A stretch of 64,000 nucleotides of DNA from Candidatus Giovannonibacteria bacterium RIFOXYD1_FULL_48_21 (GCA_001778985.1 MFIU01000004.1:3067-67066); one strand, 5' to 3'; shown: positions 1,389 to 42,667, numbered from the stretch's first letter. Notes: generated from the letters alone by a model not told the origin. Numbers and translations: made by a program.

Positions 1389-1464
1389 ATTATACTAGCA
1401 AACCTCACAAAATCTGTCAAACCCCGTTAGAAATTATACAAAATGTAAATAGCGACAGGGGTTT
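1389..1464 (-). promoter_or_regulatory. promoter (-35 TTGACA at 1415-1420, -10 at 1389-1397) with abutting upstream CCCCGTTAGAAAT motif (1421-1435) and partial inverted partner (1454-1464)
   Basis: Minus strand reads ATTTCTAACGGGGTTTGACA-17 nt-TAGTAT, then ATG at 1378. Confidence 0.5.
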
Positions 1465-1769
1465 ATCAATTCCGTATAGTCATTTGCTTAATAATAACTC
1501 TACAATAATTTCTATATGGGGTCAAATTAAGCGTAGCAAGAAGGTGAAAAAGCTGTCAAGGTTTCTATAAAATTCTCTTTAGCCGCGCGCCAGTATATCT
1601 TTTTTGCTTAGGTTCATTCTTTTGCGATCGCTGAAGTATGAACCATTTTTGAATTTATAGTTTCAACGCTATAGCTGTCAGATTGCAAATTGGAAAACTA
1701 CCAAAAAAACCAGCTAAACAACTATCTCCAACCACTAGCCAGTGTAAAAGTTTTTATGAGAAGTGATGA

Positions 1770-2960
1770 TTAAGCCCCTAAAATGCCTTCGCTGAAGCGG
1801 TTTTCGGTGCCGATGAAAATGCCTTTTTTGCGCAAAGAAAAGCTCTCCAAAATTCCCAGCGCCCAAAAAAGGCTGATGAGGCTTGATCCGCCATAAGAGA
1901 GAAATGGCATCCCCAAGCCGGTTATCGGCAATACGCCCGAATTCATGCCGATATGAATCGCGGACTGAAAAAGCAGTAAAATCGCGAGCCCCGCCGCGTA
2001 AAGTTTTTCAAAATTTGATTCTCCGTAAATTCCAGCCCGCAGAACGCGCCAGATGATAATACTGAAAAAAAACAATAAAAATACGACGCCGAGAAAACCC
2101 CATTCTTCCGCGAAAGCCGCGAAAATAAAATCGGTTTCATGTTCCGGTAAAAATTCCAGCCGCGATTGGGTGCCAAAGCCTATGCCTTTTCCAAAAATTT
2201 CCCCCGAACCTATAGCGATAACCGACTGCTGGGCGTGATAACCCGCTCCACGGATGTCGCCTTGCGGATTTATAAAAGCGGTAATCCTTGTTTTTTGATA
2301 AGGCAATAAAAAAAAGTTCCAAGCGACAGTTGTTATCAATAAACCAGTAAAAAACAAAACAATGAGATGGCGCAGTTTTATTCCGCCAACTAAAGCCATG
2401 CCCAGCCAAATTGCTCCCAAAACAATTGCTGACCCCAAATCCGGCTGCAACATCACCAACGCCATCGGCACAGCCACATAAACGAACGAAATAAAGAGAT
2501 GCACGAATCTGGCAATCTCAACATGTCTTTTAGAAAAATATTTTGCCAAAATTAAAACCGAAACAGGTTTTAAGAGTTCCACCGGCTCAATGGTCACTCC
2601 GCCGATCTTGAGCCAGCTGGCGGCGCCTTTCACAGCATACCCTGTCAAAATCAAAAAAATAAGCGCGCCAACCAAAATAAAATATAAAATAAGCAAAAAA
2701 ATGCTGTTTGTTTTAAGGAAACTCCAATCGATAAAAATCGCGCTCATGAAAAATACCGCAGCCCCGGCCGATGCCCAAATAATTTGCCGGATAAAAAAAT
2801 AATCCTCGCCCAGACTCGGCCCGCTTAGCCCAAGCGAGGCGAGCGAGGCTGGCCCTCCTGCGCCGAATGATTTCATCGTGGCAAGCCCCAAAAGAACAAG
2901 CATCAGCGCCGCCAAAAGTAGAGTCCAATCAAGACTCCTCCACATGCGGCTGGGGTTCAT
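1770..2960 (-). CDS. ftsW: SEDS-family peptidoglycan polymerase FtsW/RodA
   Basis: Polytopic membrane protein with the C-terminal LPITGLGMPFLSYGGSSL motif diagnostic of FtsW/RodA/SpoVE. Start set to the internal ATG (MNPSRMW) abutting the upstream gene stop. Confidence 0.8.
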   Translation of the reverse strand: MNPSRMWRSLDWTLLLAALMLVLLGLATMKSFGAGGPASLASLGLSGPSLGEDYFFIRQIIWASAGAAVFFMSAIFIDWSFLKTNSIFLLILYFILVGALIFLILTGYAVKGAASWLKIGGVTIEPVELLKPVSVLILAKYFSKRHVEIARFVHLFISFVYVAVPMALVMLQPDLGSAIVLGAIWLGMALVGGIKLRHLIVLFFTGLLITTVAWNFFLLPYQKTRITAFINPQGDIRGAGYHAQQSVIAIGSGEIFGKGIGFGTQSRLEFLPEHETDFIFAAFAEEWGFLGVVFLLFFFSIIIWRVLRAGIYGESNFEKLYAAGLAILLLFQSAIHIGMNSGVLPITGLGMPFLSYGGSSLISLFWALGILESFSLRKKGIFIGTENRFSEGILGA

Positions 2961-3739
2961 GGTGTTTGTCTTAATAAAATATCCGCGCGCAAAACTCCGC
3001 TTATGGCCTGTGGCCATGTAAATACCATATTTTTCTCTTCGCCGATGTCTAAGCGATTTAGCAAAGTTTTGGATACCCCTAAAACCTCTCCTTCTTGGCT
3101 AAGAAGTATAGCTCCTATTTCAATATTTTTATAAATTTGGTTCTCTTGATTTTTAATTCTTACCCCCAGACGCGGCGAAGATGAATCTTGAAGCAAGATA
3201 TCTCTTTGTAAAATATCTATTTTTAATGGCCGCGCTTCTCCTGCTTCCCAAGCAACTTCGCGCATTTCCAACAAAACTCTTTTTGGTACGCGATTTTCCG
3301 CCAGAATATTTGGCTCAAAAATTAAAAATTTCTCTCCAGACCAAATAAAAGTGCTGTTCTCGCGTACAGCGATAAGCACGCCGTTTTCATCATAAAGCTT
3401 AAAAGCGTAGACGAATTTCCCAGTTTTTAAAAATTGATTGCTGTTTTCTAAAAGCGCAGCTGCATCATACACTCCCTGGCGCGTCTGGAAAAAACGCGTC
3501 CATAAAATCGTGAGGTCGTGAATTTGCTCGGAGCAGGAGGCGCAGCGTGCTTCGGCGCCTCCGCAATCAATTCCTTCTTCGTCTTGATTTTTGCGATTAT
3601 CAAAACAGGTTGGCTCCGGCCGGAAATAATAAATCAGCCCGCCGACAATCAAAAAAATCACAGCTGCGAAAAGCACGAAAACCCAGAGCTGCCTCCTAAG
3701 TCCCCAAGAAAAAATCGGCATAGAATAAGTATATAACAA
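2957..3739 (-). CDS. hypothetical N-terminally membrane-anchored protein with Cys cluster (CFDNRKNQDEEGIDCGG...CASC)
   Basis: Long ORF in operon position between ftsW and the amidase gene neighbourhood. One TM helix. No recognisable family. Confidence 0.5.
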   Translation of the reverse strand: MLYTYSMPIFSWGLRRQLWVFVLFAAVIFLIVGGLIYYFRPEPTCFDNRKNQDEEGIDCGGAEARCASCSEQIHDLTILWTRFFQTRQGVYDAAALLENSNQFLKTGKFVYAFKLYDENGVLIAVRENSTFIWSGEKFLIFEPNILAENRVPKRVLLEMREVAWEAGEARPLKIDILQRDILLQDSSSPRLGVRIKNQENQIYKNIEIGAILLSQEGEVLGVSKTLLNRLDIGEEKNMVFTWPQAISGVLRADILLRQTP

Positions 3740-3759
3740 ACCTGCTATAATAAAAAATA

Positions 3760-4674
3760 ATGCTTAAACACGCAAAACTAGTAATATTGGCAATTTTAAT
3801 ACTAATAGTTGCGTATTATTTTGATATCGCCCGCGTCGGCACGACCGCTTATTATTTGGCGGGAGTATTTTTTGGAAAAGAAGTGCGCGCCGAAGAGCTT
3901 CTGGAAAAATATAAAAATGGCGAGGTAAAAATTTTAATAGTCCCCGGGCACGATAAAAAAAATTATGGCGCACAATACCGAGGGGTAACCGAAGCAAGTT
4001 TAAACGCCGAGCTGGGAAATTATTTATTTGATTCTTTGCGAAACAACGGAAAATTTTCCGTTTTTATCACGAATAACAGCAGCGGAGAACGCAACGATTG
4101 GATTTTGGATTACGTAAAAAGCCAGAACACGGCAATCGCCGCGTTTAAAGAAAAAGTGAAAACTATTTTTAAAAACGCCGTCAAAATCGGAGCGGTAACA
4201 AAAGAAACAAAAGTTTTTCATAACCCGGCCGCGGACAACATTTCACAAATTCTTTACGGCATAAATAAATGGGCAAACGACAATGGCATGGATATCGTGC
4301 TCCACATACATTTTAACGACTATCCAGGCAGAACATACGATATGCCCGGCAAATACAAAGGGTTCGCGATATACGTGCCGGACAACCAATTCCCCAACGG
4401 AAAAGCAAGTATGGAGATCGCGGGGTTTATAAAAAACGAACTTGAGAAAATTGTCAAAGAAAGTAATTTCCCTGGAGAAAAAGATGTTCTTATAGAAGAC
4501 CAGCAGCTGATCGCAGTGGGCTCAAACGCTTCCCGGGAAGGCGTTTCATTATTAATAGAATACGGGTATATTTACGAATCTAAATTGTTAAATAAAGATT
4601 TGCGGCCGTTTGTGCTGCGCGAATTAGCCGAAGCAACACATAGGGGCCTCGCGAATTTTTTCAAAAAATATTAA
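3760..4674 (+). CDS. N-acetylmuramoyl-L-alanine amidase-like (Amidase_3-type) cell-wall hydrolase
   Basis: N-terminal anchor. ILIVPGHD...TEASLN...IVLHIHFND spacing resembles the Zn-ligand H/E/H pattern of Amidase_3. Assignment from motif recall only. Confidence 0.5.
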   Translation: MLKHAKLVILAILILIVAYYFDIARVGTTAYYLAGVFFGKEVRAEELLEKYKNGEVKILIVPGHDKKNYGAQYRGVTEASLNAELGNYLFDSLRNNGKFSVFITNNSSGERNDWILDYVKSQNTAIAAFKEKVKTIFKNAVKIGAVTKETKVFHNPAADNISQILYGINKWANDNGMDIVLHIHFNDYPGRTYDMPGKYKGFAIYVPDNQFPNGKASMEIAGFIKNELEKIVKESNFPGEKDVLIEDQQLIAVGSNASREGVSLLIEYGYIYESKLLNKDLRPFVLRELAEATHRGLANFFKKY

Positions 4675-4841
4675 ATCCTTTCAACCGGCGGCTAGCTCCC
4701 CCCGAGGAAGTATCACCCGCCTGCAACGCTATGTGTAGCATTGCGGGCAGGTCGCCACTACCGCGTTTTACCTGCCTCGCGTTGACGCGAGTCAAAGCGG
4801 GCTTCTCTGTCCCCGCACTAAAAATTTTAGACACTAAGTAT

Positions 4842-4968
4842 GGGCGGCTGCCTACTTTCCCCAAAAATGAGTATCATCGGCAGTACAGCGTTTTACTTCT
4901 CTGTTCGGAATGGCCCGCTTCGCCGAAGCGAGGCGAGGAAGAGGTAGTTCCACTGCCTCAAGCCACCC
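4842..4968 (-). rRNA. rrf: 5S rRNA
   Basis: Minus strand reads GGGUGGCUUGAGGCAGUGGAACUACC...CAUUCCGAACAGAGAAGUAAAACGCUGUACUGCCGAUGAUACUCAUUUUUGGGGAAAGUAGGCAGCCGCC. Loop C and the loop E-helix IV core match bacterial 5S. The ends pair (GGUGGCU/AGCCGCC). Contains an extra CGCUUCGGCGAAGCG hairpin. Confidence 0.8.
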
Positions 4969-5128
4969 AAACTTAATGTCCAAATTTTTAAAATTTCAGT
5001 GCGGGGCGGGTCGGAATGTTCCCGATTTGCCCACAAGTCCGCCAGCTGGCGGACGAGTGGCTGCAAATCGCAATCCCGCGAGTCATTCTGATGACTTTGC
5101 GGGAGGAAGACCTGCCTGCCGGCAGGCA

Positions 5129-5160: not shown

Positions 5161-5313
5161 AATGAAAAGATTTAATTTCGTAAGCACATTTTCTAACAAG
5201 ACGGCTCGATCTATTAGTACTCCTCGGCTGAAATCCTTGCGGATCTTACACCTGGAGCCTATCAACGTGGTAGTCTTCCACGGATCTGATAACGATTCCT
5301 AATCTTGGGGCGT

Positions 5314-5344
<31 letters not shown>

Positions 5345-6130
5345 ACTCAACGACATAGCTACCCTGCGGTGCTCCTGGCGGAACAGCAGGTAGACCAGAG
5401 GTCGCCTCCTTCCGGTCCTCTCGTACTAGGAAGAACCCCCCTCAAGAATCAACGAGTGCAGTAGATAGGAGACCAACCTGTCTCACGACGGTCTGAACCC
5501 AGCTCACGTACCTTTTTAATTGGCGAACAGCCAAACCCTTGGGAGCTTCTCCACCCCCAGGATAAGATGAGCCGACATCGAGGTGCCGAACTCCGCCGTC
5601 GATATGGACTCTTGGGCGGAACTAGCCTGTTATCCCCGGAGTAGCTTTTATCCGTTAATCTTCCACCGGTCCTACACCGAATGGTCGGTTCACTAGATTC
5701 TGCTTTCGCATCTGCTCGGCCTGACCGCCTCGCAGTTAAGCCGGCTTGTCCTCTTACAGGTCCAGCGCGATTTCCATCCGCGCTAAGCCGACCTTGATAA
5801 ACCCCTCCGTTACCTTTTAGGAGGGTTGCGCCCCACACAAACTGCCCACCAGACACTGTCCCCAAACGTTTTCTCCGTCGAGGTTAGAATATAAGTCCTT
5901 TAAGATGGGTATTTCACTGGTGACTCCGTCCCGCCCGAGAGCAGGACTTCAAAGTCTCCCCACTATGCTACGCATAAAAAATTCATACCCAATATCAAGT
6001 TGCAGTAAAGCTTCCGGGGTCTTTTCGTCTAACTGCACCTAACCGGCATCTTCACCGGTATTGTATTTTCACCGAGCGAATCCTCGAGACAGTCCCCCAG
6101 TCGTTACGCCTTTCGTGCGCGTCGGAACTC

Positions 6131-6861
6131 CATGTTAATCCACTATTTCTAATGGCACAGACTATATCTTCATCTCAACGTCTTGAGAATATCTTTTTGA
6201 CTATATTTTCTTTTGCCGCTTGGATTCATTTTGCAAGCAATCATGACTATCTTTTTTAATCCTGACACTCTTCGATGTTTCCCTTTCTTCATAAGGCGGC
6301 AAACTTGTCTGAATCGATAAAAATCTTTTATCTTTGGAGACAAGAGCGGATACTTCTCGAAATGTGGTATTACGCGGTCGATCAAATCGTTAAGACTTCT
6401 TACTTCATATTTAAGAGTCTTATCCGAAAGATCTCGTCGCATAAATCCGCACCCAAGAGTTTTCTGTATGAGATAAAGGACGTTGGCCCTTTCTTCATTC
6501 TGACTTATAGATAAACTTGGTTTGGTTTCCCATCCTACCAAGAATTTCTTTCGTCTTGAGAAAGATACACAAAAACTTCCTTCACCATCTACATATCCAG
6601 ATATATACTCGCGATAATTTCTCTTTTTGTTGAGAGCCGGCATGTTATAGATTCATTATACTACAAATCTATCTAGGTCGCCATTGATTAACGGCGACCT
6701 AAGTCGTTACGGGGTCAATCTCGACGCTATGGTCGGGACGACTTCCCACGGTATTATCCTGCCTTCATTGCTTGAGCCTTGTTACTCAAACTCCAGCGAG
6801 AACTTCACCGTTATAAGCCGGTGTTTCATTGCGGCATCGCTGCCGCATCGGGCAACTTCCT
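6131..6861 (-). mobile_element. group I intron in 23S rRNA at the E. coli ~1917 site (GUCGGGU | intron | GAGUUCCGAC)
   Basis: Exon sequence CCUUGUCGGGU...GAGUUCCGACGCGCACGAAAGGCG is contiguous with E. coli GUCGGGUAAGUUCCGACCUGCACGAAUGGCG once 731 nt are removed. The 5' exon ends in U and the insert ends in G. The insert carries a LAGLIDADG ORF on the rRNA strand. Confidence 0.75.
6170..6643 (-). CDS. LAGLIDADG homing endonuclease (single-motif, I-CreI-like)
   Basis: 157-aa ORF inside the 23S intron with YISGYVDGEGSF (the LAGLIDADG motif) near the N-terminus. Confidence 0.8.
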   Translation of the reverse strand: MPALNKKRNYREYISGYVDGEGSFCVSFSRRKKFLVGWETKPSLSISQNEERANVLYLIQKTLGCGFMRRDLSDKTLKYEVRSLNDLIDRVIPHFEKYPLLSPKIKDFYRFRQVCRLMKKGKHRRVSGLKKIVMIACKMNPSGKRKYSQKDILKTLR

Positions 6862-6878
6862 CACCCGACAAGGAATTG

Positions 6879-6914
<36 letters not shown>

Positions 6915-8440
6915 GACGAGGGCTTCGGACAGTCAGCCCCTCGACTCGGTGCTATGCACCTCGCTCGGGGTAAACCCTAGAAATCCAGGATTTATCCTGA
7001 GTGAGATACGCAGTATCGAATCGAAGGACCGCCATCGTTAACCTTCTCGCATTGGTCAGGCGTCACCCCCTATACATCCTCTTACGAGTTCGCAGGGAGC
7101 TGTGTTTTTGATAAACAGTCGCCAGGGGTACTTTCGCTGCGCCCCGCCTGCCATATATTTCTATACGTTGGCGGGGAGGCCTTATTCCGAAGTTACGGCC
7201 GCTTTTTTGCCGAGTTCCTTGAGGATCTCTCACTCGTTCGCCTGAGGCTACTCGCCTCACCCACCTGTGTCGGTTTTCGGTACGGTTTCCCTCTTCATAA
7301 TCTTAGAAGCTTTTCTAGGAAGGCTGCTTTGTTCCATTTCCTCCGCCGAGGCGGAAAATTTTTGCTCGACTAAGAGTTGCCAAAAGGCCGTCCCGAGATT
7401 TTCTACGGGACACTCCTCATCGCACAAACGCGAATCCAATAACACGCAGAACATACTAACCTTCGTCCCTTCATCGAAAAAGAAGGAAGTCACGGAATAT
7501 TAACCGTGTGTCCATTACCTGCGGCTTTCGCCATTGGCTTAGGACCGACTAACCCTTGGCTGACAATCATTGCCAAGGAAACCTTAGGTTTGCGGCGTGC
7601 CGGTTTTTCACCGGCATTGTGGTTACTTGTGCCAACATTCTCACTTCCCAGCGCTCCATCCCGGCTCACGCCGTGGACTTCACTGCACTAGGAACGCTCT
7701 CCTACCCCCCGCTTTACATTAATATTTCAAATGTTAGCGGAGCCTCACCTTCGGCACTCTCTTTAGTCCCGATTATCTGCGGCGCAAGGTCTCTTGACGA
7801 GTGAGCTGTTACGCACTCTTTGAAGGATGGCTGCTTCTAAGCCAACCTCCTCGCTGTCATTGAAACCTCACCGCCTCACTTACACTTAAGAGAGATTTTG
7901 GGGCCTTAGATTGAGATCTGGGCTGTTGCCCTCTCGACCGACGGAGCTTAGCCCCCGTAGTCTGACTGGCCGCCCAAAGCTACGCCATTCGGAGTTTGGT
8001 AGGTACGTCGAGATTTCTCCCTTTACGAACCTTCCAGTAGCTCTACCTGCGTAGTTGTAGCGGACGCTAGCCCAAAAGCTATTTCGGAGAGAACCAGCTA
8101 TTCCCAGGTTCGATTAGCTTTTCACTCCTACCCCCAACTCATCCGATAGCGTTGTACGACTAACCGGTGCGGACCTCCTCCCGCCTTTCGGCGGGATTCA
8201 TCCTGGCCAGGGGTAGCTCACCTGGCTTCGGGTCTATAGCAAACTGCAAACGCCCTATTAAGACTCGGTTTCCCTACGCCTCCTCCCGCTATAACGGAAT
8301 TAGACTAGCAGCGTACTATAACTCGTTGGCTCATTCTTCAATAGGCACCCCGTCACCCTGAACACGCTTGCGCGTGAACGGGCTCCGAGTCCTTGTAAGC
8401 ATATGGTTTCAGGTACTATTTCACCGCCCTCACCGGGCTG

Positions 8441-8479
<39 letters not shown>

Positions 8480-9237
8480 GTTTCGAAGTATTTAGCCTTA
8501 GGAGAGTAGTTCTCCCTGTTTCCTCCGAGCTTATCTTGTTCTCGAAGTACTCAAGAAAAAAGACAAGGAGCATAAAAGGTTTTTTAAGTACGGGGCTATT
8601 ACCCTCTTTGGCCGGCCTTTCCAGGGCCGTTCCCCTAAACAACTTCTATATTTCTAAACTCCCTTCCAGGAACATAGCTATACGCTCCGGAAAGTCTTTT
8701 TCTTACTACCCCCCGCCCACTAATCAAAAATAAATTCCTGAATAGTGAAGCGAGGTTTGGGCTTTTCCCCTTTCGCTCGCCGCTACTTAGGGAATGTCCC
8801 GCATTCCGCGGGATTGTTTTCTTTTCCTCTGGGTACTGAGATGTTTCACTTCCCCAGGTGCACGCAGTCCGAAGTTACTCGGAAAGCAATTCGACATTAC
8901 TCGAATTAGGTTACCCCATTCGGAAATCACCGGATCAAAGGTTGCTCGACACCTCCCCGATGCTTATCGCAGTCACGCCACGTCCTTCATCGTCTTCGAA
9001 ACCCTAGGCATCCACCATACGCTCTTATTTTCCGCTCCGATCTAAAAGCTCTCCAGCTTTAGATCAAAGTTATTTTTATACTTTATACATTGGTGCTCTT
9101 TAAATTTTTAAGGTTCTAACCTTATGAACTTATGAAAAAATCCGCCTAGAAGCGGACCTACATAGCGCAACTACGCGTGATTTTATCCGCTTCTATGTCT
9201 AAAGTTGATTAAATTAAGCCTCATAAGATTGTGCTTT

Positions 9238-9343
9238 CATTATAGTCCTGTCATTTGGCGCGTCAAGCCCCCGTTAGAAATCCGCCCTGTGAATAATTTC
9301 ACACGACGCCAGCCGCCCCAGGGCGGCTTATTTCTAACGGGGC
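9238..9343 (-). promoter_or_regulatory. rRNA operon promoter (-35 TTGACG 9261-9266, -10 TATAAT 9240-9245) with inverted pair of CCCCGTTAGAAAT motifs (9267-9289 and 9319-9343)
   Basis: Minus strand reads ATTTCTAACGGGGGC-TTGACG-16 nt-TATAAT about 190 nt upstream of the 23S 5' end. Half-sites CCCCGTTAGAAATCCGCCCTG and CAGGGCGGCTTATTTCTAACGGGG are long inverted repeats. Confidence 0.55.
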
Positions 9344-9363
9344 AAGCCCCTTGTGGAAAATGA

Positions 9364-9392
9364 AAACCGGCCGTTAAACGGCCGGTTTTCAA
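9364..9392 (-). terminator. intrinsic terminator hairpin (AAAACCGGCCGTTTAACGGCCGGTTTT)
   Basis: Perfect GC-rich stem followed by a T-run on the minus strand, immediately downstream of the 9413..10099 gene. Confidence 0.6.
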
Positions 9393-11374: not shown

Positions 11375-12002
11375 AGGTTTTGATTTTTAATTCTTCTCTA
11401 AGTTTCTCAAAAAATCCTCTCTTCCCGAGCACGCCTCCGCCCAGAACAACAGCCTCGGGCTTATATTTTTTTATTAAAACCGAGAATTTCTCGCCCAGAA
11501 ACATTGCAAGCTTTTCATAATCTTTTCTGTCACGGATTTTCTGATATTCGCGTTCCCATTTTTCTGGATATTCGAAATTCTTGATTTTTTTCACCCTTCC
11601 TTTTTCTGCATAGGCGCGCCCAATCCCGGTGCCGATAGTAAACGTCAAAATTCTCTTAGCTCTTACTTTTTTAGCCCTTTCCCGCAAAAAGACGCGGGCG
11701 TCATTGTCCACGCGCAAAACTGCTTTTGGGAATATTTTCTGGAAATCAAAATTCTTAAGATAGAGAATATTGGGGCTGAAAACTACTCTGGTCCCAGAGA
11801 TAACTCCGGCAACGCCGATTTCGATTCTTTTTGCATCTGAAAATTTTTTAAGAAGAGAAACGAAAGATTTTCTATTTTTTGGAGTCCGAAATTCCTTCCG
11901 CCCCGTCCGGATTTTTGATCCGCCTATGTCTAGAGTTAAAACAATTTTTTCGCTTCGTTCCATATTTCGGGATGACCGTTTATTTTGAGCCAATACCACC
12001 AT
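11367..12002 (-). CDS. ROK/glucokinase-like sugar kinase (short)
   Basis: LDIGGSKIR phosphate-1 motif of ASKHA sugar kinases and a C-terminal AVVLGGGV motif. Start uncertain (12002 or 11963). Confidence 0.5.
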   Translation of the reverse strand: MVVLAQNKRSSRNMERSEKIVLTLDIGGSKIRTGRKEFRTPKNRKSFVSLLKKFSDAKRIEIGVAGVISGTRVVFSPNILYLKNFDFQKIFPKAVLRVDNDARVFLRERAKKVRAKRILTFTIGTGIGRAYAEKGRVKKIKNFEYPEKWEREYQKIRDRKDYEKLAMFLGEKFSVLIKKYKPEAVVLGGGVLGKRGFFEKLREELKIKTYV

Positions 12003-13856: not shown

Positions 13857-13932
13857 GGTGGGCGCGCCCCGATTCGAACGGGGGACCTTTCCGATGTGAA
13901 CGGAACGCTCTAACCAGCTGAGCTACGCGCCC
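13855..13932 (-). tRNA. tRNA-Val (anticodon CAC)
   Basis: GGGCGCGUAGCUCAGCUGGUUAGAGCGUUCCGUUCACAUCGGAAAGGUCCCCCGUUCGAAUCGGGGCGCGCCCACCA folds as a cloverleaf. Anticodon loop UUCACAU. Confidence 0.85.
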
Positions 13933-14021
13933 CGTATAGAAAATTAAACAAACATTTTTATACGGCTGAAGTGTTTAATCTATAAAATAACAACCAAAAT
14001 CTCATAAAACAAGACGCAAAA

Positions 14022-14045
14022 ATTTTCTAACGGGGCGCGCCCTGA
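14022..14045 (-). promoter_or_regulatory. single CCCCGTTAGAAAAT half-motif about 90 nt upstream of tRNA-Val
   Basis: Minus strand reads CAGGGCGCGCCCCGTTAGAAAATTTTTGCGTC. Overlaps the stop of the 14027..14620 gene. Confidence 0.4.
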
Positions 14046-17958: not shown

Positions 17959-17961
17959 ACG

Positions 17962-18300: not shown

Positions 18301-18355
18301 CGCTAAAAAACCTTTATTTTAACGTGATTTTTCCAGAGGTTATAAACAATTTATT

Positions 18356-25756: not shown

Positions 25757-25782
25757 AAAGCCCCCTGATCAGGGGGCTTTTC
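25757..25782 (-). terminator. intrinsic terminator (AAAAGCCCCCTGATCAGGGGGCTTTT)
   Basis: Perfect hairpin plus a T-run downstream of the RRM gene. Confidence 0.65.
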
Positions 25783-25797
25783 TTTTTGTTAGTTCTA

Positions 25798-34736: not shown

Positions 34737-35291
34737 GGAGAAAGTTCATTAAGTCTAGTGGTATACTTCAGTGAGTATGCCAGACAAAAGAACTTATGCC
34801 GATCGTGCAAAGTACTTAAGCAAGTACGTATCAAAACGCCGAAAGAAGCTGAAACAGATGGTTGTAGCATATAAGGGTGGTAAGTGCGTGCTTTGCGGGT
34901 ATAGCAAGTACGAAGGCGCATTTGATCTTCATCATATTGATGAGTCAAAAAAAGAATTCGGCTTATCGACAAGAGGCCTGACAAGATCTTGGGAAAAGAC
35001 AAAACGAGAAGCCGATAAGTGCGTTTTAGTATGTGCTAATTGTCATCGCGAATTGCACGGTGGTATTACGCAGCTTTCCGCCGCAAGGCGGATTGAAAAA
35101 CGAGGTGAATTGCTGGAAACCTAAATCCTTTTGGACAAGGCAATCAGCAGCCAAGTCCCGCCATCGGCGGGAAAGGTTCAGAGACTATCTCGAAAGAGAG
35201 TAGTCCGACACAAAGTCGGACGAAGCGCCTCGCCCCTGCAAAATCAGGGTGATGATATAGTCCACCCCCATAAGAAATTTTGGGACAAGTG
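34737..35291 (+). mobile_element. group I intron with HNH homing endonuclease ORF
   Basis: Core segment CAGCAGCCAAGTCC...GTTCAGAGACTATCTCGAAAGAGAGTAGTCCGACACAAAGTCGGACG matches group I P6/P7/P3/P8 consensus (compare Tetrahymena GUUCACAGACUAAAUGUCGGUCGG). Confidence 0.75.
34777..35124 (+). CDS. HNH homing endonuclease (intron-encoded)
   Basis: CVLCGYSKYEGAFDLHHID...CANCHRELH, an HNH motif with flanking Zn-binding Cys pairs. Confidence 0.75.
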   Translation: MPDKRTYADRAKYLSKYVSKRRKKLKQMVVAYKGGKCVLCGYSKYEGAFDLHHIDESKKEFGLSTRGLTRSWEKTKREADKCVLVCANCHRELHGGITQLSAARRIEKRGELLET

Positions 35292-35350
35292 TAAGGAGTG
35301 GGTCGCAGGTTCGAATCCTGCCCGGGGAGCCAAGAAACTAGATACGAACT

Positions 35351-35894: not shown

Positions 35895-35895
35895 T

Positions 35896-37890
35896 ATGCC
35901 AAAACTACCTGATCCATTTTCTACAAAACCGACCAAAGAGCAGATTCAGACAACGCGCGAGATTTTGGACGCTATTTTTAAAGACCCCCAAGTCAAATAC
36001 GGCTTGCGGGAGTTTTCGAAACTAAAAATAGAGGAAGCTATCACGATTTTTGAAAAAGAAAAAGACAAATTTTATATCCACTGCCTCAAACGCGATAAAG
36101 ATATTGCGGTTTATGACAAAAGCAAAAATACCGGCAAGCCGGAAGAAATTATCCGTCAGCTTTGGCTTGTCAGATTGATTAGAGATTATCGCTACCCCCC
36201 CGATAGAATTGATGTTGAGGTTGACGTACATTTCGGCACAGAAGTCCACAGAAAAGCCGCCGATATAATGATTTACCAGGACGATAAGGAAACGCCCTAC
36301 ATTGTTTTTGAATTAAAGAAGCCGAAAGTTGAAGACGGGATAGATCAGTTAAAAAGCTATCTAAACTCCAAAGGTTCGCCGATTGGTGTTTGGTCCAACG
36401 GAAACGAGCGGGTTATTCTTTATCGTCCCTATCCGAAAAAATTTGAAAACAACTTGCGGGCAATCCCTCGCGTTGACCAGACAATTGAGGATGTTCTGGA
36501 AGAACGGCTTACCTTGGAAAAATTGACCTCCGACTATGATTTGAGCGAGCGCATTAAAATTTTGGAGGAACTGGTGCTTGCTAATGCCGGAGTTGATGTC
36601 TTCCAGGAAGTTTTCAAACTCATTTACGCAAAACTTTATGATGAAAAAGAAGCGCGCTCGCGCCCGGACAAAGAGGTTTATTTCCGAATGTCCAAGGACC
36701 CGAAATTTACTTTTGACATTGTTAATCGGCTATTCAAGGAATCTGTTTTGGAGTGGCCGGGAATTTTTACTCCTCACGATGAACTTCAATTATCACCCGA
36801 ACATCTTGCCGTTTGCGTTTCAGAGTTGGAAGACATAAAACTCCTTGATTCAAGCTTGGAAATTATTGACACCGCTTTTGAATATCTTTTGCCGGAAGTG
36901 GCGAAAGGCAAAAAAGGACAATACTTTACGCCTCGCCATGTGATTGATATGGCGGTAAAAATGCTCAATCCGCGCGATAAAGAATACATTGTTGACCCAG
37001 CGGCAGGGTCGGGCGGCTTTCTTATCCACGCTATGCAGTGGGTTTGGAGCCATGACTTGAAAGAAACGCCGCACGAAAAGCAGGTTGACTATGCCCGCCG
37101 GTATCTTTTCGGCATTGATTTTGACGATAAGCCGGTAAAAATCTCCCGCGCCTTGATGCTTATTGCCGGAGACGGCCGCTCGCATATTTTCAAACTTAAT
37201 TCTCTTAATCCGAAAGAATGGCAAGGTTCTGACTCTGAAAAAGAAAATGCGAGAGCAGAACTTCGCAAACTACTTCTTAAAACCGGTGATTACGAAGCAG
37301 ACCGAAACAACGAGGAAAATTTCCGCAGTTTTGCTTTTGATGTTTTACTTACCAATCCGCCGTTTGCCGGAAAAATCAAAGAGCAAATGCTATTGCGAGA
37401 GTATGAACTAGCCAAAAACAAAAAAGGTAAAATTCCTAAACAAGTCGGCCGCGATCTTCTTTTCATTGAGCGGGCGCTTCAACTAATAAAGCCCGGCGGG
37501 CGTTTAGCAATCGTCCTCCCCCAAGGCAAGCTAAACAACACGAATACCGAATACATCCGCCAGTGGTTGTTAGGTAGGGCGCGAGTTTTAGCGGTTGTCG
37601 GATTGCATGGTAACACCTTCAAACCGCATACCGGCACTAAAACCTCTCTATTATTTTTGCAGAAATGGGGCGGCGAAGCCGGAAGGCCAGAAGACGATTA
37701 CCCAATTTTTATGGCAACTTCCAAAAACTCTGGAAAAGATAATTCCGGAGAATATGTCTATAAAAAAGATGCGAAAGGAAATTTTGTTTTGGACGAACGC
37801 GGCCGCCGAATTTTACATCACGACTTGGATGAAGTTGCCGAGACATTCGTCAAATTCGCCAAAGAACAAAAATTTAGTTTTTGGAAATAA
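35896..37890 (+). CDS. restriction-modification protein: HsdR_N-like PD-(D/E)xK nuclease domain fused to gamma-class N6-adenine DNA methyltransferase (HsdM / type IIB A-subunit-like)
   Basis: N-terminal ADIMIYQDDKETPYIVFELKKPKVEDGIDQLKSY (D...ELK pattern of HsdR_N). MTase motif I VDPAAGSGGFL and motif IV LLTNPPF. Confidence 0.75.
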   Translation: MPKLPDPFSTKPTKEQIQTTREILDAIFKDPQVKYGLREFSKLKIEEAITIFEKEKDKFYIHCLKRDKDIAVYDKSKNTGKPEEIIRQLWLVRLIRDYRYPPDRIDVEVDVHFGTEVHRKAADIMIYQDDKETPYIVFELKKPKVEDGIDQLKSYLNSKGSPIGVWSNGNERVILYRPYPKKFENNLRAIPRVDQTIEDVLEERLTLEKLTSDYDLSERIKILEELVLANAGVDVFQEVFKLIYAKLYDEKEARSRPDKEVYFRMSKDPKFTFDIVNRLFKESVLEWPGIFTPHDELQLSPEHLAVCVSELEDIKLLDSSLEIIDTAFEYLLPEVAKGKKGQYFTPRHVIDMAVKMLNPRDKEYIVDPAAGSGGFLIHAMQWVWSHDLKETPHEKQVDYARRYLFGIDFDDKPVKISRALMLIAGDGRSHIFKLNSLNPKEWQGSDSEKENARAELRKLLLKTGDYEADRNNEENFRSFAFDVLLTNPPFAGKIKEQMLLREYELAKNKKGKIPKQVGRDLLFIERALQLIKPGGRLAIVLPQGKLNNTNTEYIRQWLLGRARVLAVVGLHGNTFKPHTGTKTSLLFLQKWGGEAGRPEDDYPIFMATSKNSGKDNSGEYVYKKDAKGNFVLDERGRRILHHDLDEVAETFVKFAKEQKFSFWK

Positions 37891-37899
37891 ATTACTCTT

Positions 37900-38871
37900 A
37901 TGAATACTGAAGAATATAAAAAAATAGATTGGAACAAACTACTTCGTAAGGACTTGGGCGAGTATAGTTTGGAAGTGGCGAAGCCAAATCTCGACAGAAT
38001 AAAGTCGATATTTGACGAGATTTTGAATTATCCAAACCTCGATCAGCTATCTGATAATTTTAAAAATCAGATTCAATCACAACTTAATTCCTTGGTGCAA
38101 TTTGCGAATCAGATTGTAAATAACTTTCAAAATACGAGTGAGCGTCAAACTTGGATCAATAATATAAAAAATAAGGAGTTCGAAGTTTATCAAAATCTCT
38201 CAAATATCTATGGGTATATAAAGGATTTTGATCCGGCAAGAGATGAACGGCTGAAAGATGTTATTAAAAAGTCAGAGGAACGTATAAAAAAGTTAAATGA
38301 GGATTTAAGTAAAACAGAAGCTCTTTTGCAGCAGGCGCAGAAAAAGGCAGTTCAAAGCGAAGTAATGGAATATGGAAACTTCTTTGGAAATGAGGCGGTA
38401 AAAAACGAGAGAACGGCAAAAATAAACCGATGGCTAATGTTCGGAAGTGTTGCTTTAACTGCTGTGCTCTCTGTTATCTTTCTACAAAACATCAAATTTG
38501 TTTCATCAGAAGAAATGACATTTTTTGAAAATGTCCTACAAACTATAAATGCACAAAACATACTTATAAAGTTTGTTTTGCTCTCGCTGGGCGGTTTCTT
38601 GATTGCTCATTTTTCAAAAGTACATTCAACGGAGAAAAACTTGTATAACCTCAATATCCAGCGACAAAATGCGCTTAATTCTCATAAACAAATTCTTGAT
38701 TCAGTAGTTGCTACTGAAAGTGAAAATGAGAAAGAAGTTAGAAACGCGATTTTACTTGAACTTACTAAAGCAATTTTTGCTAACCATGAGACCGGTTACT
38801 TGAAGGGTTCTAAAGATAATCCTGGGCCAGCAAGCCAGATAGTAGAGATAACAAAGACTTTACCGAAGTAA
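37900..38871 (+). CDS. hypothetical coiled-coil protein with two TM helices, embedded between the M and S genes
   Basis: 323 aa. About 170-aa Asn/Gln/Lys-rich coiled-coil N-domain, helices WLMFGSVALTAVLSVIFL and ILIKFVLLSLGGFLIAHF, and a 90-aa C-tail. No family. Confidence 0.5.
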   Translation: MNTEEYKKIDWNKLLRKDLGEYSLEVAKPNLDRIKSIFDEILNYPNLDQLSDNFKNQIQSQLNSLVQFANQIVNNFQNTSERQTWINNIKNKEFEVYQNLSNIYGYIKDFDPARDERLKDVIKKSEERIKKLNEDLSKTEALLQQAQKKAVQSEVMEYGNFFGNEAVKNERTAKINRWLMFGSVALTAVLSVIFLQNIKFVSSEEMTFFENVLQTINAQNILIKFVLLSLGGFLIAHFSKVHSTEKNLYNLNIQRQNALNSHKQILDSVVATESENEKEVRNAILLELTKAIFANHETGYLKGSKDNPGPASQIVEITKTLPK

Positions 38872-38873
38872 TC

Positions 38874-40238
38874 ATGCAGTATTCAATAATCCAAAAATCA
38901 CGACTTGAAGGTGGCCTACGGCTAGACGCGGAATTTTACCATCCGGAAAAATTAGAGGCGATGGAAAAGTTATCTAAATTCGGCATTAGCACTATTGCCG
39001 AGAATTTTCGGAACGTAAAAGAAACTTTTAACCCCCTCCGACATAAGTTAGCTACCACCCCCGCTCGCGTTTTTGATTTGTCTGATGTGAGTTCTTTTCT
39101 ACTGGAAGCAGGAGCAAAAGTAGAAAAAGCCGATGAAGTCGGCTCTACAAAAAAGATTATTCGCCAAAATGATGTTTTGATTTCTCGCTTGAGGCCTTAT
39201 CTCAAGGAAGTTTCTTTTGTGGGGTTTAATGAGGTTCAAAAACTGGCTTCAACCGAGTTTGTGGTTTTACGAAAAAAGAAGGATTCAAAGTTTCCTCCGC
39301 AAGCCCTTTTTGCATTTTTAACAACAGACGAAGTTCAAAATATTTTATTCTGGAGTCAAGGAGGAACAGAACATCCTCGCTTTTCCGAAAATCTTTTGAT
39401 GGGCTTAAAATTGCCGAAAACTTCGGAAAAGATGGCAGAAAGTATCGTAGATGATGTTAACGGCACTTACAAAAATTATCTGATATCACAAAATCTTTAC
39501 TCTCAAGCCGAGGATTTGCTGTTGGAAGAATTAGGATTGAAAGATAAAGATTTTGAGATTAAGGACGATTTGGCTTATATCGTCAATCTTTCTGAAATAA
39601 AATCCAACCATCGCGCTGACGCCGAATACTTCCAGCCGAAGTACGAAAACATTATGTCTCTAATTCGCGCGAATGGTGGAACAATGCTTGGCGATTTAGC
39701 AACGATGAAAAAAGGCATTGAGCCGGGGAGTGAGGTATATCAAGATGAGGGCAAACTATTTATTCGTGTAAGCAGCTTGTCTAAAAATGGGCTTGAAGAC
39801 AAAGACCAAAAGTATTTAAGCGATGAATTGTATCAGAAGTTAAAGAAAAATTACGAGCCGAAAGTTGGCGAGATTTTACTAACCAAAGACGCAACGCCAG
39901 GCACCGCTTATGTAGTGAAAGAGCCGATTGAGGGGATTGTTTCGAGCGGCATTTTACGCTTGAAGTTAAAGAATGAAAAGGTGGAAAATGAATATCTGGC
40001 ATTGTGTCTTAATTCCGTAATCGGACAAACTCAAGCGGAGCGCGATGGTGGGGGTTCTATCATTACACACTGGAGACCGGAACAAATCAAAAATGTTTTA
40101 ATTCCGATTTTACCCAAACCCACCCAGCAGAAAATCGCCGACTTAGTCCAAAAATCCCACGAAGCCCGCTCAAAAGCAAAACAACTTTTAGAACAAGCCA
40201 AATATAAAGTTGAACAATTGATTGAATCTAAAAAATAA
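38874..40238 (+). CDS. hsdS: type I-like specificity subunit HsdS (two target-recognition domains)
   Basis: Internal duplication with conserved LDAEFYHPEKLEAMEKL and ADAEYFQPKYENIMSLI spacer motifs typical of HsdS. Confidence 0.75.
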   Translation: MQYSIIQKSRLEGGLRLDAEFYHPEKLEAMEKLSKFGISTIAENFRNVKETFNPLRHKLATTPARVFDLSDVSSFLLEAGAKVEKADEVGSTKKIIRQNDVLISRLRPYLKEVSFVGFNEVQKLASTEFVVLRKKKDSKFPPQALFAFLTTDEVQNILFWSQGGTEHPRFSENLLMGLKLPKTSEKMAESIVDDVNGTYKNYLISQNLYSQAEDLLLEELGLKDKDFEIKDDLAYIVNLSEIKSNHRADAEYFQPKYENIMSLIRANGGTMLGDLATMKKGIEPGSEVYQDEGKLFIRVSSLSKNGLEDKDQKYLSDELYQKLKKNYEPKVGEILLTKDATPGTAYVVKEPIEGIVSSGILRLKLKNEKVENEYLALCLNSVIGQTQAERDGGGSIITHWRPEQIKNVLIPILPKPTQQKIADLVQKSHEARSKAKQLLEQAKYKVEQLIESKK

Positions 40239-40258
40239 TAATGTTAATTTTATAAATT

Positions 40259-41179
40259 ATGGCCAACTTATATTGGAAAAAGGATAAAAAAATATTTGCT
40301 GCCACAGAAACTCCATTTAAAACAGAAGAGGAGCTTGAGCATTATCTTTTAGATACGCGAGGAATTCTTAGCGATATTTATATTTTAAATAGACAAGTGA
40401 GGGCGAGGGCGGTTTCTGGTATAGAAATTCCGGACATGGTTGGAGTGGATAGCGAAGGAACGATTGTGATTATTGAGAACAAAAATATTCCCGTTGATGA
40501 AAAAATTATTTCGCAAGTGCTTAATTATGCACTTTGGGCAGAAGCAAATCCAGATTCAATAAAGAATCTTTGGCTTGAAGCCGAACAAGAGGGCACAGAG
40601 CCCGAGTGGGACAACCTACAAATTCGCATTATTATTGTCGCGCCTGAAATAAAACAACACTTGGCAAAATTTATATCGAAAATAGGATACCCGATCGATT
40701 TATTAGAAATCAAAAAATTCAACATAGGTAAAGACGAATTTATAGTTCTTAATAAGATTGAGGCCAATGTTTTTACTGCAAAGCCGGTTCATGGAAAAAG
40801 GAGCTATGATATCGCTTACTACGCAAAAGGGCATAATAAAGAGAGTGTTAAAAAATTTGAACAAGTTGTAAATCGCGTTGAGAGTTTTATTCACAAAAAT
40901 GGATGGAAATTGGAAAAGAAATTTAATCAAGGATATATAGGTTTCAAATACGGCTTCCCATTGGTTTTTGGTATCCAATGGCTTGGAAGTAGGTCATTTG
41001 GTTTCTTTTTCAAAATGCCTAAATCAAAAATGAAGAAAATCATTGTCCCTGGCCTTGAGTTTAGAGGATATATTGATAGGTGGAGTCAAGTTGAATACAA
41101 AATTAACTCGCCCGATTTTGATATTAAAAAATTAACTCCCTTATTTTTGGCTTCCTACAAATACATAAGGGGGGGGTAA
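40259..41179 (+). CDS. PD-(D/E)xK nuclease-fold protein with uncharacterised C-terminal domain
   Basis: IPDMVGVDSEGTIVIIENKNIPVDEKIISQVLNYALW fits the D-x(n)-E-x-K restriction-endonuclease-like core. About 170-aa C-terminal domain unknown. Confidence 0.5.
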   Translation: MANLYWKKDKKIFAATETPFKTEEELEHYLLDTRGILSDIYILNRQVRARAVSGIEIPDMVGVDSEGTIVIIENKNIPVDEKIISQVLNYALWAEANPDSIKNLWLEAEQEGTEPEWDNLQIRIIIVAPEIKQHLAKFISKIGYPIDLLEIKKFNIGKDEFIVLNKIEANVFTAKPVHGKRSYDIAYYAKGHNKESVKKFEQVVNRVESFIHKNGWKLEKKFNQGYIGFKYGFPLVFGIQWLGSRSFGFFFKMPKSKMKKIIVPGLEFRGYIDRWSQVEYKINSPDFDIKKLTPLFLASYKYIRGG

Positions 41180-41234
41180 AAATTTGTGGCGCACCAGCTA
41201 ACGCTGGCACAAATTCCGTCGGCGCAAAAAGCGA

Positions 41235-41277
41235 GGGCGCGGCGGAAGGGGGGTGTGGGGGGAATTCCGCCGCGCCC
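41235..41277. repeat. perfect 13-bp GC-rich inverted repeat (GGGCGCGGCGGAA / TTCCGCCGCGCCC) with G-rich loop GGGGGGTGTGGGGGGAA
   Basis: Read directly from the sequence, just downstream of the island's last gene. Confidence 0.6.
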
Positions 41278-41501
41278 GAGCCGGAAGCGAAGCGTCAGAA
41301 ATCAGTGTCAGGATTTTCGCGAAAAAAAGTTCGGATTTCGTTCAGGGTGTGGAGCCAGTAGCAAACTTAAGTCATTTTCAGAAAAATTTTTGCGTGCGAC
41401 GCAAAGCGTCGCCCATTGTTTTGCGGGGATTTCTTCAACTTTTTTATTTCGTAAAGTCAGGTTCGAGCCGAATATTTTTTGGAGAACTATAAATAATTTT
41501 T

Positions 41502-41615
41502 ATGGACGAAGAAAAAGAACGGCAAAAAGAAATAAGAGAAAAGCTGGAAAGCGAGGGGCTTGATCCTGACGAGTTTGACGAGGACGAGCAAGAACAACTC
41601 GCCGATTTACTTTAA
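41502..41615 (+). CDS. acidic miniprotein (37 aa)
   Basis: MDEEKERQKEIREKLESEGLDPDEFDEDEQEQLADLL. TATAAAT-like -10 upstream. Stop lies 6 nt before the Zn-ribbon ORF. Confidence 0.35.
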   Translation: MDEEKERQKEIREKLESEGLDPDEFDEDEQEQLADLL

Positions 41616-41621
41616 TCATAT

Positions 41622-41795
41622 ATGGTCAAATTCACACAAAAAGACGACAAAGAACTATATCAATGTGAGGAGTGCGGTTTTCACTATGAATACCGCGAGT
41701 GGGCGGAAAAATGCGAAGCGTGGTGCCGGGAACATAAGAATTGCAATATTGAGATTACTGCTCATGCATTTGAATTATTCTATTTGGGTTATTAA
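41622..41795 (+). CDS. Zn-ribbon miniprotein (57 aa), paralog of 50103..50270
   Basis: MVKFTQKDDKELYQCEECGFHYEYREWAEKCEAWCREHKNCNIEITAHAFELFYLGY. Cys4-5 ribbon. About 65 percent identical to the second copy. Not in the ORF track. Confidence 0.55.
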   Translation: MVKFTQKDDKELYQCEECGFHYEYREWAEKCEAWCREHKNCNIEITAHAFELFYLGY

Positions 41796-41820
41796 TTAAA
41801 AAGAGCTAAAATATAAACAT

Positions 41821-42582
41821 ATGTTTGAACTCAAAAATAAAGTTGCGTTGGTCACCGGCGGGAGGCGCGGCATGGGGAGAACTCATGCTTTGGCTTTGGC
41901 CGGTCAGGGAGCAAAAGTTATTGTTACCGACATTGATGCCAAAGAATGTCTGCCGGTGGTTGAGGAAATAAAATCAAAAGGCGGCGATGCAGCCTGCTTC
42001 AAGATGGATGTTTCAAACGCAGAGGAGGTTAATCAAGTTTTTGACGAGGCCATTAAACAATTCGGTCGCTTGGATATTTTGGTAAATAACGCCGGCATTT
42101 ATTTCTCAAAGCCGGCCTCAGAACTTACTGAAGCGGACTGGGACAAGATGATTGATATTAACCTTAAGGGGCAGTTTCTGTGTGCCCAACGAGCCGCAAA
42201 AGAGATGACAAAGAACAAGTGGGGTCGGATTATTAACATTGCATCGGTTGCCTCCGGGCAGGTTGGTGTCGGCATTGCCGGCGGCGCGCACTATACCGCC
42301 TCAAAAGGAGGAATTATTGGGATGTCGGAAACTCTGGCGGTCGAGTGGGCCCCGCTCGGAATTAATGTAAATGTCGTAGCTCCCGGCGCGATTGATACTC
42401 CGATGGTGCAGGCGGCACAACTGCCAAAGGAAGCAATGGACGCCATGCTCTCCAGAGTTCCATTAAAAAGAATCGGCAGGCCGGAAGAAGTTTCTGCAAT
42501 GGTTGTCTTTCTCGCTTCAGAGGAAGCAAGTTATGTCACTGGTGCCACATTTTATGTGGACGGTGGCTGGTTGGCCGTATAA
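41821..42582 (+). CDS. SDR-family oxidoreductase (FabG-like)
   Basis: VALVTGGRRGMGRTHALAL glycine motif, NNAG, YTASKGG catalytic Tyr/Lys. Confidence 0.8.
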   Translation: MFELKNKVALVTGGRRGMGRTHALALAGQGAKVIVTDIDAKECLPVVEEIKSKGGDAACFKMDVSNAEEVNQVFDEAIKQFGRLDILVNNAGIYFSKPASELTEADWDKMIDINLKGQFLCAQRAAKEMTKNKWGRIINIASVASGQVGVGIAGGAHYTASKGGIIGMSETLAVEWAPLGINVNVVAPGAIDTPMVQAAQLPKEAMDAMLSRVPLKRIGRPEEVSAMVVFLASEEASYVTGATFYVDGGWLAV

Positions 42583-42610
42583 AAACCGAGACATAAATCC
42601 TACCAGCAAT

Positions 42611-42667
42611 TCACCCCGTTAGAGGCAGAGGCACGCTGCGAGCCCTCGCGGCCTCTAACGGGGTTCA
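42611..42667. promoter_or_regulatory. inverted pair of the CCCCGTTAGA motif family (TCACCCCGTTAGAGGC ... GCCTCTAACGGGGTTCA)
   Basis: Long hairpin-capable palindrome 28 nt after the SDR stop and about 190 nt upstream of mscS. A TTGACT follows 25 nt downstream. Confidence 0.45.

Follow-up and report, generated by a model that had tools for sequence, protein, structure and literature searches.

Rickettsia palindromic elements (RPEs) are small palindromic repeats that often lie in frame inside unrelated core genes of a reduced genome (PMC10969869). [quoted passage not shown] The piggyBac transposons have CCC ends and duplicate a 4-bp TTAA target, with TAAA and TCAA reported as variants, and IS1380 is their prokaryotic outgroup (PMC10813416). 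Here we describe a family of hairpin elements from a 64,000-nt stretch of Candidatus Giovannonibacteria bacterium RIFOXYD1_FULL_48_21 (GCA_001778985.1 MFIU01000004.1:3067-67066), called the window hereafter, in which a first-pass annotation had reported a recurrent motif, CCCCGTTAGAAAT, and had read it as the binding site of a global regulator or as an UP-like module. We conclude that the motif is very probably the terminal inverted repeat of miniature, non-autonomous, MITE-like mobile hairpin elements that occur in several phyla, the five copies in the window being lineage insertions. The closest named relatives of the window TruB were Patescibacteria ("Candidatus Giovannonibacteria"), the source species is present in many groundwater metagenomes (ENA ERZ27254752 and JGI 3300009285 are examples of metagenomes with this species), and the window contains small genes along with a 23S-5S operon that is unlinked.

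The recurrence of the CCCCGTTAGAAAT motif is genuine and well beyond chance. Six copies occurred in the window, either exactly or with one mismatch (1422-1434, 9269-9281 and 18358-18370 on the plus strand; 9330-9342, 14023-14035 and 18407-18419 on the minus strand), and allowing two mismatches gave 10 matches, compared to 2.63 on average and 6 at most in shuffled sequence, with none of 100 shuffles reaching 10. A variant pair with AGGC, whose arm reads CCCCGTTAGAGGC, was situated at 42614-42626 and 42651-42663. The recurrence noticed earlier was therefore not random, and its coordinates were right to within 1 nt. The three inverted pairs reported at that time were indeed there, but all five sites proved to be paired, two slightly altered partner arms (1508-1521 and 13930-13943) having been missed. 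Likewise, the copies had been described as always intergenic, which is not strictly so: the arm at 14023-14035 reaches into the coding sequence (CDS) at 14027-14620 and its partner arm into tRNA-Val. Each of the five sites is a complete hairpin element, 50-106 nt long, with 13-bp terminal inverted repeats (CCCCGTTAGA and three covarying bases), the arms were paired in DNA folding of every copy, and each pair is flanked by direct repeats that had gone unnoticed:

E1, 1422-1521 (100 nt): arms at 1422-1434 (CCCCGTTAGAAAT) and 1508-1521 (ATTTCTATATGGGG, degenerate, with a change mid-arm); TCAAA at 1417-1421 and 1522-1526.
E2, 9269-9342 (74 nt): arms at 9269-9281 and 9330-9342, with two small hairpins inside; CAAGC at 9264-9268 and 9343-9347.
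E3, 13930-14035 (106 nt): minus-strand arms CCCCGTTAGAAAA (14035 to 14023) and TTTTCTATACGGGG (13943 to 13930); CGCG at 13926-13929 and 14036-14039.
E4, 18358-18419 (62 nt): arms at 18358-18370 and 18407-18419, with one C/T mismatch; flanks TTCA and TTAA, the whole spanning 18354-18423.
E5, 42614-42663 (50 nt): arms CCCCGTTAGAGGC and GCCTCTAACGGGG; TTCA at 42610-42613 and 42664-42667; also listed as inverted repeat I13.

E2 (inverted repeat I5) folded as DNA at -25 kcal/mol (z = -6.6), and E3, whose TTTTCTATACGGGG arm carries a small change mid-arm, folded with z = -5.3. E3 is positioned in the 5' acceptor arm of tRNA-Val (13856-13932, minus strand), where its terminal GGG forms bases 1-3 of the tRNA and its GTTAG gives Pro-Arg-stop, the last two codons and the stop, to the upstream CDS (14027-14620). 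E4 sits exactly on the TAA stop codon of truB, and E5 is located between an SDR gene and mscS. Near-identical copies of E5 (88-97%) were found in three otherwise unrelated genomes (L095, L055 and L026); within this 50-nt subfamily the copies of the window and L095 were 97% identical, and only one further nucleotide match, of 57 nt, was found between the fetched stretches.

Empty sites were available from a contig (L123) of a relative with a 93% identical TruB, which covers two of the five element positions. At truB, the relative reads ...AAAAGTTAA directly followed by TAAATTGTTTATAAC (beginning TAAATTG), whereas the minus strand of the window reads ...AAAAGTTAA, then an insertion running from CCCCGCTAGAAAT to ATTTCTAACGGGG TGAA, and then TAAATTG; in the alignment, 62 nt stand between AAAAGTTAA and TGAATAAATTG in the window. 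The difference consists of the hairpin and a second copy of TTAA (now TGAA), and nothing else, with the stop codon preserved. Non-coding DNA on both sides of E4 aligned cleanly with L123, with a mean column identity of 85% over the whole stretch, insertion included. At tRNA-Val, the relative reads ...CAGGGCGCG joined to TAGCTCAGC... (in longer form, ...AATCAGGGCGCG joined to TAGCTCAGC...), and the window has in addition a 106-nt element and a duplicated CGCG inside the acceptor arm. Judged from these alignments, E3 and E4 inserted after the split from this relative. In L123 (13950-14013) the stop codon of the upstream CDS (TAG) lies inside the 5' end of tRNA-Val, such that CDS and tRNA overlap; in the window the two are separated by E3, at a distance of 91 nt.

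Occurrence among other relatives was patchy. No elements were found in 61 kb from relatives with 75-79% identical TruB, and a sample of 80 related Parcubacteria loci (0.906 Mb) held five elements in four loci, compared to five in the 64 kb of the window. As these 80 loci were fetched via a protein (a metagenome scan around 11936-12952) and not via the motif, they give an unbiased density; the same scan returned only relatives of at most 64% identity and no further empty sites. Such patchy, lineage-specific occurrence is the pattern of a mobile element. Two of the relatives with 75% identical TruB, both without hairpin elements, carry a reverse-transcriptase gene (RVT_1, 404 residues; L126 3206-4420 and L127 1356-2570), which probably belongs to a group II intron or retron.

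Flanking duplications were also found across the wider family. Identical 4-mers stood directly outside the arms in 63 of 134 elements (permutation mean 9, maximum 18, 2000 permutations), and six further elements had 5-bp repeats, while the flanking 4-mers were palindromic in only 5 of the 134. The reconstructed target was g-[T/C]-N-N-[A/G]-c, the commonest 4-mers being TTTA/TAAA, TCAA/TTGA and TGAA/TTCA; TTAA is a rare target in this family. Arm positions 11, 12 and 13 were complementary in 121, 115 and 95 of 131 elements, respectively, and position 14 in 31 of 131, which equals chance. Since 28 different 3-mers occupy positions 11-13 and stay complementary, these positions covary. Elements ranged from 29 to 147 nt in size, with loops of 3 to more than 100 nt, and the smallest (29-32 nt, made up of 13 + 3-6 + 13) keep their target duplications, so the arms alone suffice. 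The flanking bases form an extra purine:pyrimidine (R:Y) pair, position -1 never being T and position +1 never A. We also considered a guide of the IS608 type, in which arm positions 11-13 would be linked to the duplicated 4-mer, and rejected it, as E2 and E4 share AAT arms and their targets differ. A few small interior subfamilies occur, and elements are often nested or tandem. One Patescibacteria genome (L003) has the same 90-nt composite, an element nested in an element, in direct orientation at 4187-4276 and 6963-7052; the repeats flank clpB, and the 868-residue open reading frame (ORF) between them is ClpB rather than a transposase.

We evaluated the spread of the elements by scanning one genome per species (596 Gb) for exact matches to the pattern CCCCGTTAGA-N28-58-TCTAACGGGG. 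At least 119 stretches matched, compared to an estimated chance expectation of a few tens for this palindromic pattern. Tallied by record titles, the matches listed comprised 42 Patescibacteria, 38 Planctomycetota, 11 Omnitrophota, three Cloacimonadota, four each of Bacteroidota/Ignavibacteriota, Desulfobacterota (three of them under older delta-proteobacterial names) and Nitrospirota/Nitrospinota, one each of Clostridia, Stahlbacteria, Ratteibacteria and Methanosarcinales, and nine unclassified records; among the matches listed, none was named Pseudomonadota (beyond the three delta-proteobacterial names) or Actinomycetota. Several genomes had multiple matches. A 495-kb Kerfeldbacteria contig (JAZDNT010000003.1) is among the carriers. 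Viral contigs gave only five matches, and thus no sign of a phage vector.

Many elements lie in protein-coding genes, where they preserve the reading frame. Lengths of 3n+2 were found in 77 of 134 elements (p = 9e-9), and together with a 4-bp duplication this makes the insertion a multiple of three; because the stop frames of the two arms (CCC CGT TAG and TC TAA CGG) coincide at 3n+2, two of three frames are left open. Of 136 elements, 28 (21%) were spanned by one open frame of at least 150 nt on each side, and all 28 were in frame. Host genes were dnaE (DNA polymerase III alpha), those for UvrA, SecA and PrmC, infB (IF-2), asd (aspartate-semialdehyde dehydrogenase), and genes for Sua5/TsaC, a class II aminoacyl-tRNA synthetase and an AIR-synthase-like protein. 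Comparison of Asd with PDB 2yv3 gave a single clean gap of 18 residues exactly at the element. The in-frame copies read xPVR[N/S/D]...[I/T]SNG[V/A] in 24 of the 28 and xPLE...LTGR in the other four. Such insertions explain the 17-25-residue PVR...SNG inserts in DnaE, UvrA, SecA, IF-2 and Asd of metagenome-assembled genomes, as well as extended C-termini and rebuilt tRNA 5' ends in such assemblies. An element in L149 (12249-12351) has an arm with a 1-nt insertion (CCCCGCTTAGAAAT) that extends across the start of a gene resembling type IV pilin and, on the other strand, encodes the leader ...KISKRG/FTLIELL.

The two promoters described in the first-pass annotation were confirmed, each of them adjoining a motif copy:

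1420 to 1392, minus strand: promoter of the Sigma70_r4/HARE-HTH gene, TTGACA-17-TAGTAT (10/12 and an extended TG), adjoining E1.
9266 to 9239, minus strand: promoter of the 23S-5S operon, TTGACG-16-TATAAT (11/12, the best in 1-20 kb), adjoining E2.
5195-9039, minus strand: 23S gene.
4839-4970, minus strand: 5S gene.

Both rank among the four best sigma-70-like matches of the first 20 kb, and promoter-like flanks were enriched across genomes: 14 of 262 outward flanks had a sigma-70-like match of at least 9/12 with its -35 starting 0-2 nt from the element end (0.8 expected from random positions), and 10 had one of at least 10/12 (0.16 expected). The association could be taken to indicate an operator or UP-like module of a global regulator, with the pairs as dimer sites. 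However, in every such flank the -35 begins with bases of the duplicated target, namely TTGA, or CTTG/TTTG for the window copies, and its remainder belongs to the flank. At E1, the first four -35 bases (TTGA) fall within the duplicated TCAAA/TTTGA, and at E2 the TTG of the -35 falls within the duplicated GCTTG. The sequence before insertion, as reconstructed, therefore already had the full hexamer, and the promoters are not supplied by the motif; the apparent fusion arises because elements enter the TTGA/CTTG of TTGAC-type hexamers, and the duplication leaves the hexamer intact beside the element. The promoter association is thus real and reflects where elements land or survive. Since TTGA/TCAA, at 11 of 63, was not favoured over the other T-N-N-A targets, the enrichment probably results from the abundance of TTGAC in intergenic DNA and from tolerance of insertion just upstream of a -35.

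Further evidence contradicts a regulatory site. The positions of E3 and E4 are empty in L123 with their surroundings conserved, and neither is a promoter site (the E1 and E2 sites could not be compared). The pairs carry target duplications, the arms stand anywhere between 3 and more than 100 nt apart, and the same sequence occurs in unrelated phyla, with copies in frame in dnaE, uvrA, secA and asd, downstream of genes, at a stop codon and in a tRNA gene; moreover, the motif is absent at the loci of relatives with 75-79% identical TruB and rare in the 0.9-Mb sample of related genomes. We therefore regard a regulator site as highly improbable. Every copy is the end of an element, and presence only inside a mobile-element family was the observation that the first-pass annotation had itself named as speaking against its proposal. 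A false regulatory lead is thereby removed, as motif scans of such genomes will keep finding this 'regulon', which consists of transposon ends.

A functional RNA structure kept by selection, such as a terminator (a role also suggested earlier), an mRNA-stabilising 3' hairpin, a processing site or a small non-coding RNA (ncRNA), would account for the stable stems and for the copies that follow truB and the SDR gene, and some interiors contain a GC hairpin followed by a T-rich arm (e.g., 9311-9328). The few interior subfamilies are also conserved with compensatory changes. Yet no element was overlapped by an Rfam 15 match, either at the gathering threshold or at E values up to 5, the arms, being symmetric, form an identical stem on either strand, and no U-tract comes after the stems of E4 and E5, where the sequence continues with TTAACTTTTA and TTCACTATCT. 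E3, E4 and E5 are not intrinsic terminators, as a terminator scan found no hairpin-plus-T-run at any of them, and the gene upstream of E2 is already followed by a separate canonical terminator at 9361-9391 (inverted repeat I9). Empty sites, target duplications and the many copies that are read through inside coding sequence likewise argue against selection for an RNA, which is very unlikely to explain the family, although individual copies may have acquired an exapted secondary role as RNA.

In the mobile hairpins, two 13-bp arms (CCCCGTTAGA plus three variable, complementary bases) surround a loop whose sequence is nearly free and whose length is 3 to about 100 nt, and insertion occurs through a 4-bp, occasionally 5-bp, staggered cut that duplicates YNNR, mostly T-W-W-A, with a weak preference for GTNNAC; gain or loss of an element is precise. 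Elements are tolerated wherever the host survives, be it in intergenic DNA, at stop codons, at a tRNA end rebuilt by the G's of the element, or in coding sequence, where element and duplication usually add up to a multiple of three and are read through as PVR...SNG(V). The elements would most likely be moved by a DDE-type transposase that acts in trans and needs only the arms, since a fixed short duplication and a symmetric target preference are the signature of a staggered cut by an enzyme of this type. It could belong to the IS1380/piggyBac lineage, judging by the duplication of 4-5 bp, by ends that read CCCC and by empty sites that are clean; in that case the elements would be prokaryotic counterparts of seamless-excision transposons. 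Movement would probably be by cut-and-paste with seamless excision, from which both the diverse, low-copy interiors and the clean empty sites would follow.

Several observations weigh against mobile elements of this kind. Perfect 4-bp repeats were missing from 53% of the elements despite perfect arms, which the search had demanded, and interiors were mostly unrelated (110 of 134 were singletons), even within one genome, unlike the near-identical bursts of ordinary MITEs. Some of the cross-phylum assignments come from metagenome bins that are possibly contaminated, though binning error is less likely for those matches that lie on long contigs (a 1.7-Mb Nitrospirota contig, CAVVUN010000015.1, and Planctomycetaceae contigs of 130-160 kb). 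No transposase was found in the window, in 10 kb past its right end or in a short stretch past its left end. When the 676 ORFs close to 119 elements were clustered all against all, only housekeeping families recurred. About 2 Mb of fetched DNA was also examined for a parent element, with two arms separated by 160-8000 nt and a shared duplication, and only coincidences of separate small elements appeared; tblastn of the ISEcp1 transposase against the fetched loci gave one spurious match in a P-type ATPase gene, and no transposase of the piggyBac or IS1380 type near any element. Lastly, the covariation at arm positions 11-13 and the indifference to loop length are easier to reconcile with an enzyme that recognises a folded hairpin or cruciform than with binding of duplex ends.

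Alternatively, then, a structure-specific enzyme (HUH/RAYT-like, or a junction-type nuclease) might move the elements as folded single-stranded hairpins or cruciforms. This would agree with a stem fixed at 13 bp whose positions 11-13 vary in a compensatory manner, with the extra flanking R:Y pair, with mobility that does not depend on loop length (3 to more than 100 nt), with unconstrained interiors, and with arms paired in the folds of all five window copies. The fixed 4-bp duplication with its palindromic target preference is instead typical of a staggered DDE-type cut; the elements have no GTAG head, and no Y1-transposase gene appeared in any Pfam scan made. To our knowledge, HUH elements (IS200/IS605 and repetitive extragenic palindromic (REP) sequences) leave no target duplication, and because this applies to the known hairpin-reading transposases of that type, we consider such an enzyme unlikely. 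A broader and still tentative possibility, which we find somewhat easier to entertain, is that these are undescribed ultra-small mobile hairpins (29-nt minimum) of whose 13-bp stem only the base might be read, as a hairpin or cruciform, and which might be cut and pasted seamlessly by an enzyme that Patescibacteria, Planctomycetota, Omnitrophota and others share horizontally, perhaps a prokaryotic relative of piggyBac; they would then provide a source of cross-phylum promoter rewiring and of peptide insertion into essential proteins. A 10-bp end shared across phyla, free interiors and a 29-nt minimum raise a testable question, namely which enzyme is responsible and whether it reads a hairpin.

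The window has a number of other features:

17950-18300, minus strand: non-coding stretch of about 300 nt between truB and a TP_methylase gene, a candidate unknown ncRNA; it aligned closely with L123 throughout, has a strong intrinsic terminator at its end (17974-17949) and gave no Rfam match even at E = 5.
5195-9039, minus strand: the 23S gene, spanning 3845 nt compared to a 2925-position model, with a weak group I intron match at 6139-6268.
6170-6643: ORF in the 23S insert; the corresponding 157-residue ORF of a contig from the same species (L215) was called LAGLIDADG_1.
34940-35350: intron-split tRNA gene that was not called by ARAGORN, with a group I intron at 35052-35284 (plus strand; Rfam, 83.5 bits), then the tRNA 3' half (...GGGTCGCAGGTTCGAATCCTGCCCGGGGAGCCA), and an HNH-like ORF just upstream of the intron (...CVLVCANCHRELH).
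35900-42000: low-GC island (37-43%, compared to about 48%) whose products resemble type I restriction-modification proteins (N6_Mtase with HSDR_N_2, and Methylase_S) or have no Pfam match.
Near 35 kb: change of sign in GC skew, at the same place as the switch in gene strand.
48317-49852, minus strand: fusion of LexA DNA-binding, Peptidase_S24 and DNA methyltransferase domains, an unusual architecture also encoded just past the right end (L214 8169-9623); the window protein has a methyltransferase part of the D12 class, and the L214 protein has N6_N4_Mtase.
25747-25790 (22+22 nt) and 50602-50635 (17+17 nt): perfect palindromes with flanking A/T runs that resemble bidirectional terminators and draw weak spurious Rfam leader matches.

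Taken together, the intron match and the LAGLIDADG_1 ORF identify the 23S insert as a group I intron with a homing endonuclease.

No description of this hairpin family was found in the open-access literature searched: full-text matches to the 10-mers were primer coincidences only, one candidate was an engineered oligonucleotide with an inserted CCC bulge, and literature on MITEs in Patescibacteria held nothing relevant. The elements share with MITEs their small size, terminal inverted repeats, target duplication and presence/absence polymorphism (L123 being without E3 and E4); a parent insertion sequence with the same ends was absent from about 2 Mb of fetched DNA, which is a weak negative. 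We classify them as an ultra-small hairpin MITE family that crosses phyla, leaves its interiors free and has frame tolerance built in.

REP sequences and REPINs resemble these elements in that short palindromic repeats are paired as hairpins with a variable spacer, are intergenic and depend on an enzyme in trans. REPs have a GTAG head, are species-specific and extragenic, and show no target duplication. Unlike in REP/RAYT systems, the hairpin elements have no GTAG head, carry a 4-bp duplication, lie in coding sequence in 21% of cases and share their arm across phyla. The REP-like structural repeat offered earlier as a second option was therefore apt as far as palindromic structure goes, but target duplications are present and the hallmarks of REPs are missing. 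Integron attC sites have the core order 5' RYYYAAC ... GTTRRRY 3', a cassette context and an integrase gene; we rejected them as a match, as the core-site order is reversed here (GTTAGA ... TCTAAC), the elements are flanked by unique housekeeping genes, and they have target duplications.

Like Correia elements, the hairpin elements adjoin promoters, in 14 of 262 flanks. In Correia elements the promoter hexamers lie within the element or where it joins the flank, the repeats measure 26 bp and TA is duplicated, whereas the hairpin elements have 13-bp repeats and a 4-5-bp duplication, and the -35 and -10 hexamers beside them belong to target DNA. The likeness to piggyBac and IS1380 lies in the length of the duplication, 4 bp and sometimes 5, to some extent in its T-N-N-A type, and in ends of the form CCCC...GGGG. 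The 13-bp end of piggyBac is CCCTAGAAAGATA, and seamless excision is known for this transposon; the left end of ISEcp1 reads CCTAGATTCTACG (starting CCTAGA), compared to CCCCGTTAGAAAT for the hairpin element. These end similarities are short and could be due to chance. Targets here are T-N-N-A or C-N-N-G, with the TTAA of piggyBac rare, and arm covariation is not known in piggyBac or IS1380.

RPEs are similar in that the hairpin elements, too, lie in frame in core genes (28 of 28) and add a short peptide (18 residues in Asd). We know of no transposase for RPEs. They measure about 100-150 bp, fall into ten sequence families and are restricted to Rickettsia, while the hairpin elements span 29-147 nt and are defined by the 13-bp arm alone; in addition, the hairpin elements differ from RPEs in their clear 4-bp duplication and their presence in several phyla. 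In-frame tolerance of palindromic elements, described as a peculiarity of Rickettsia, is here a general outcome in several uncultured phyla.

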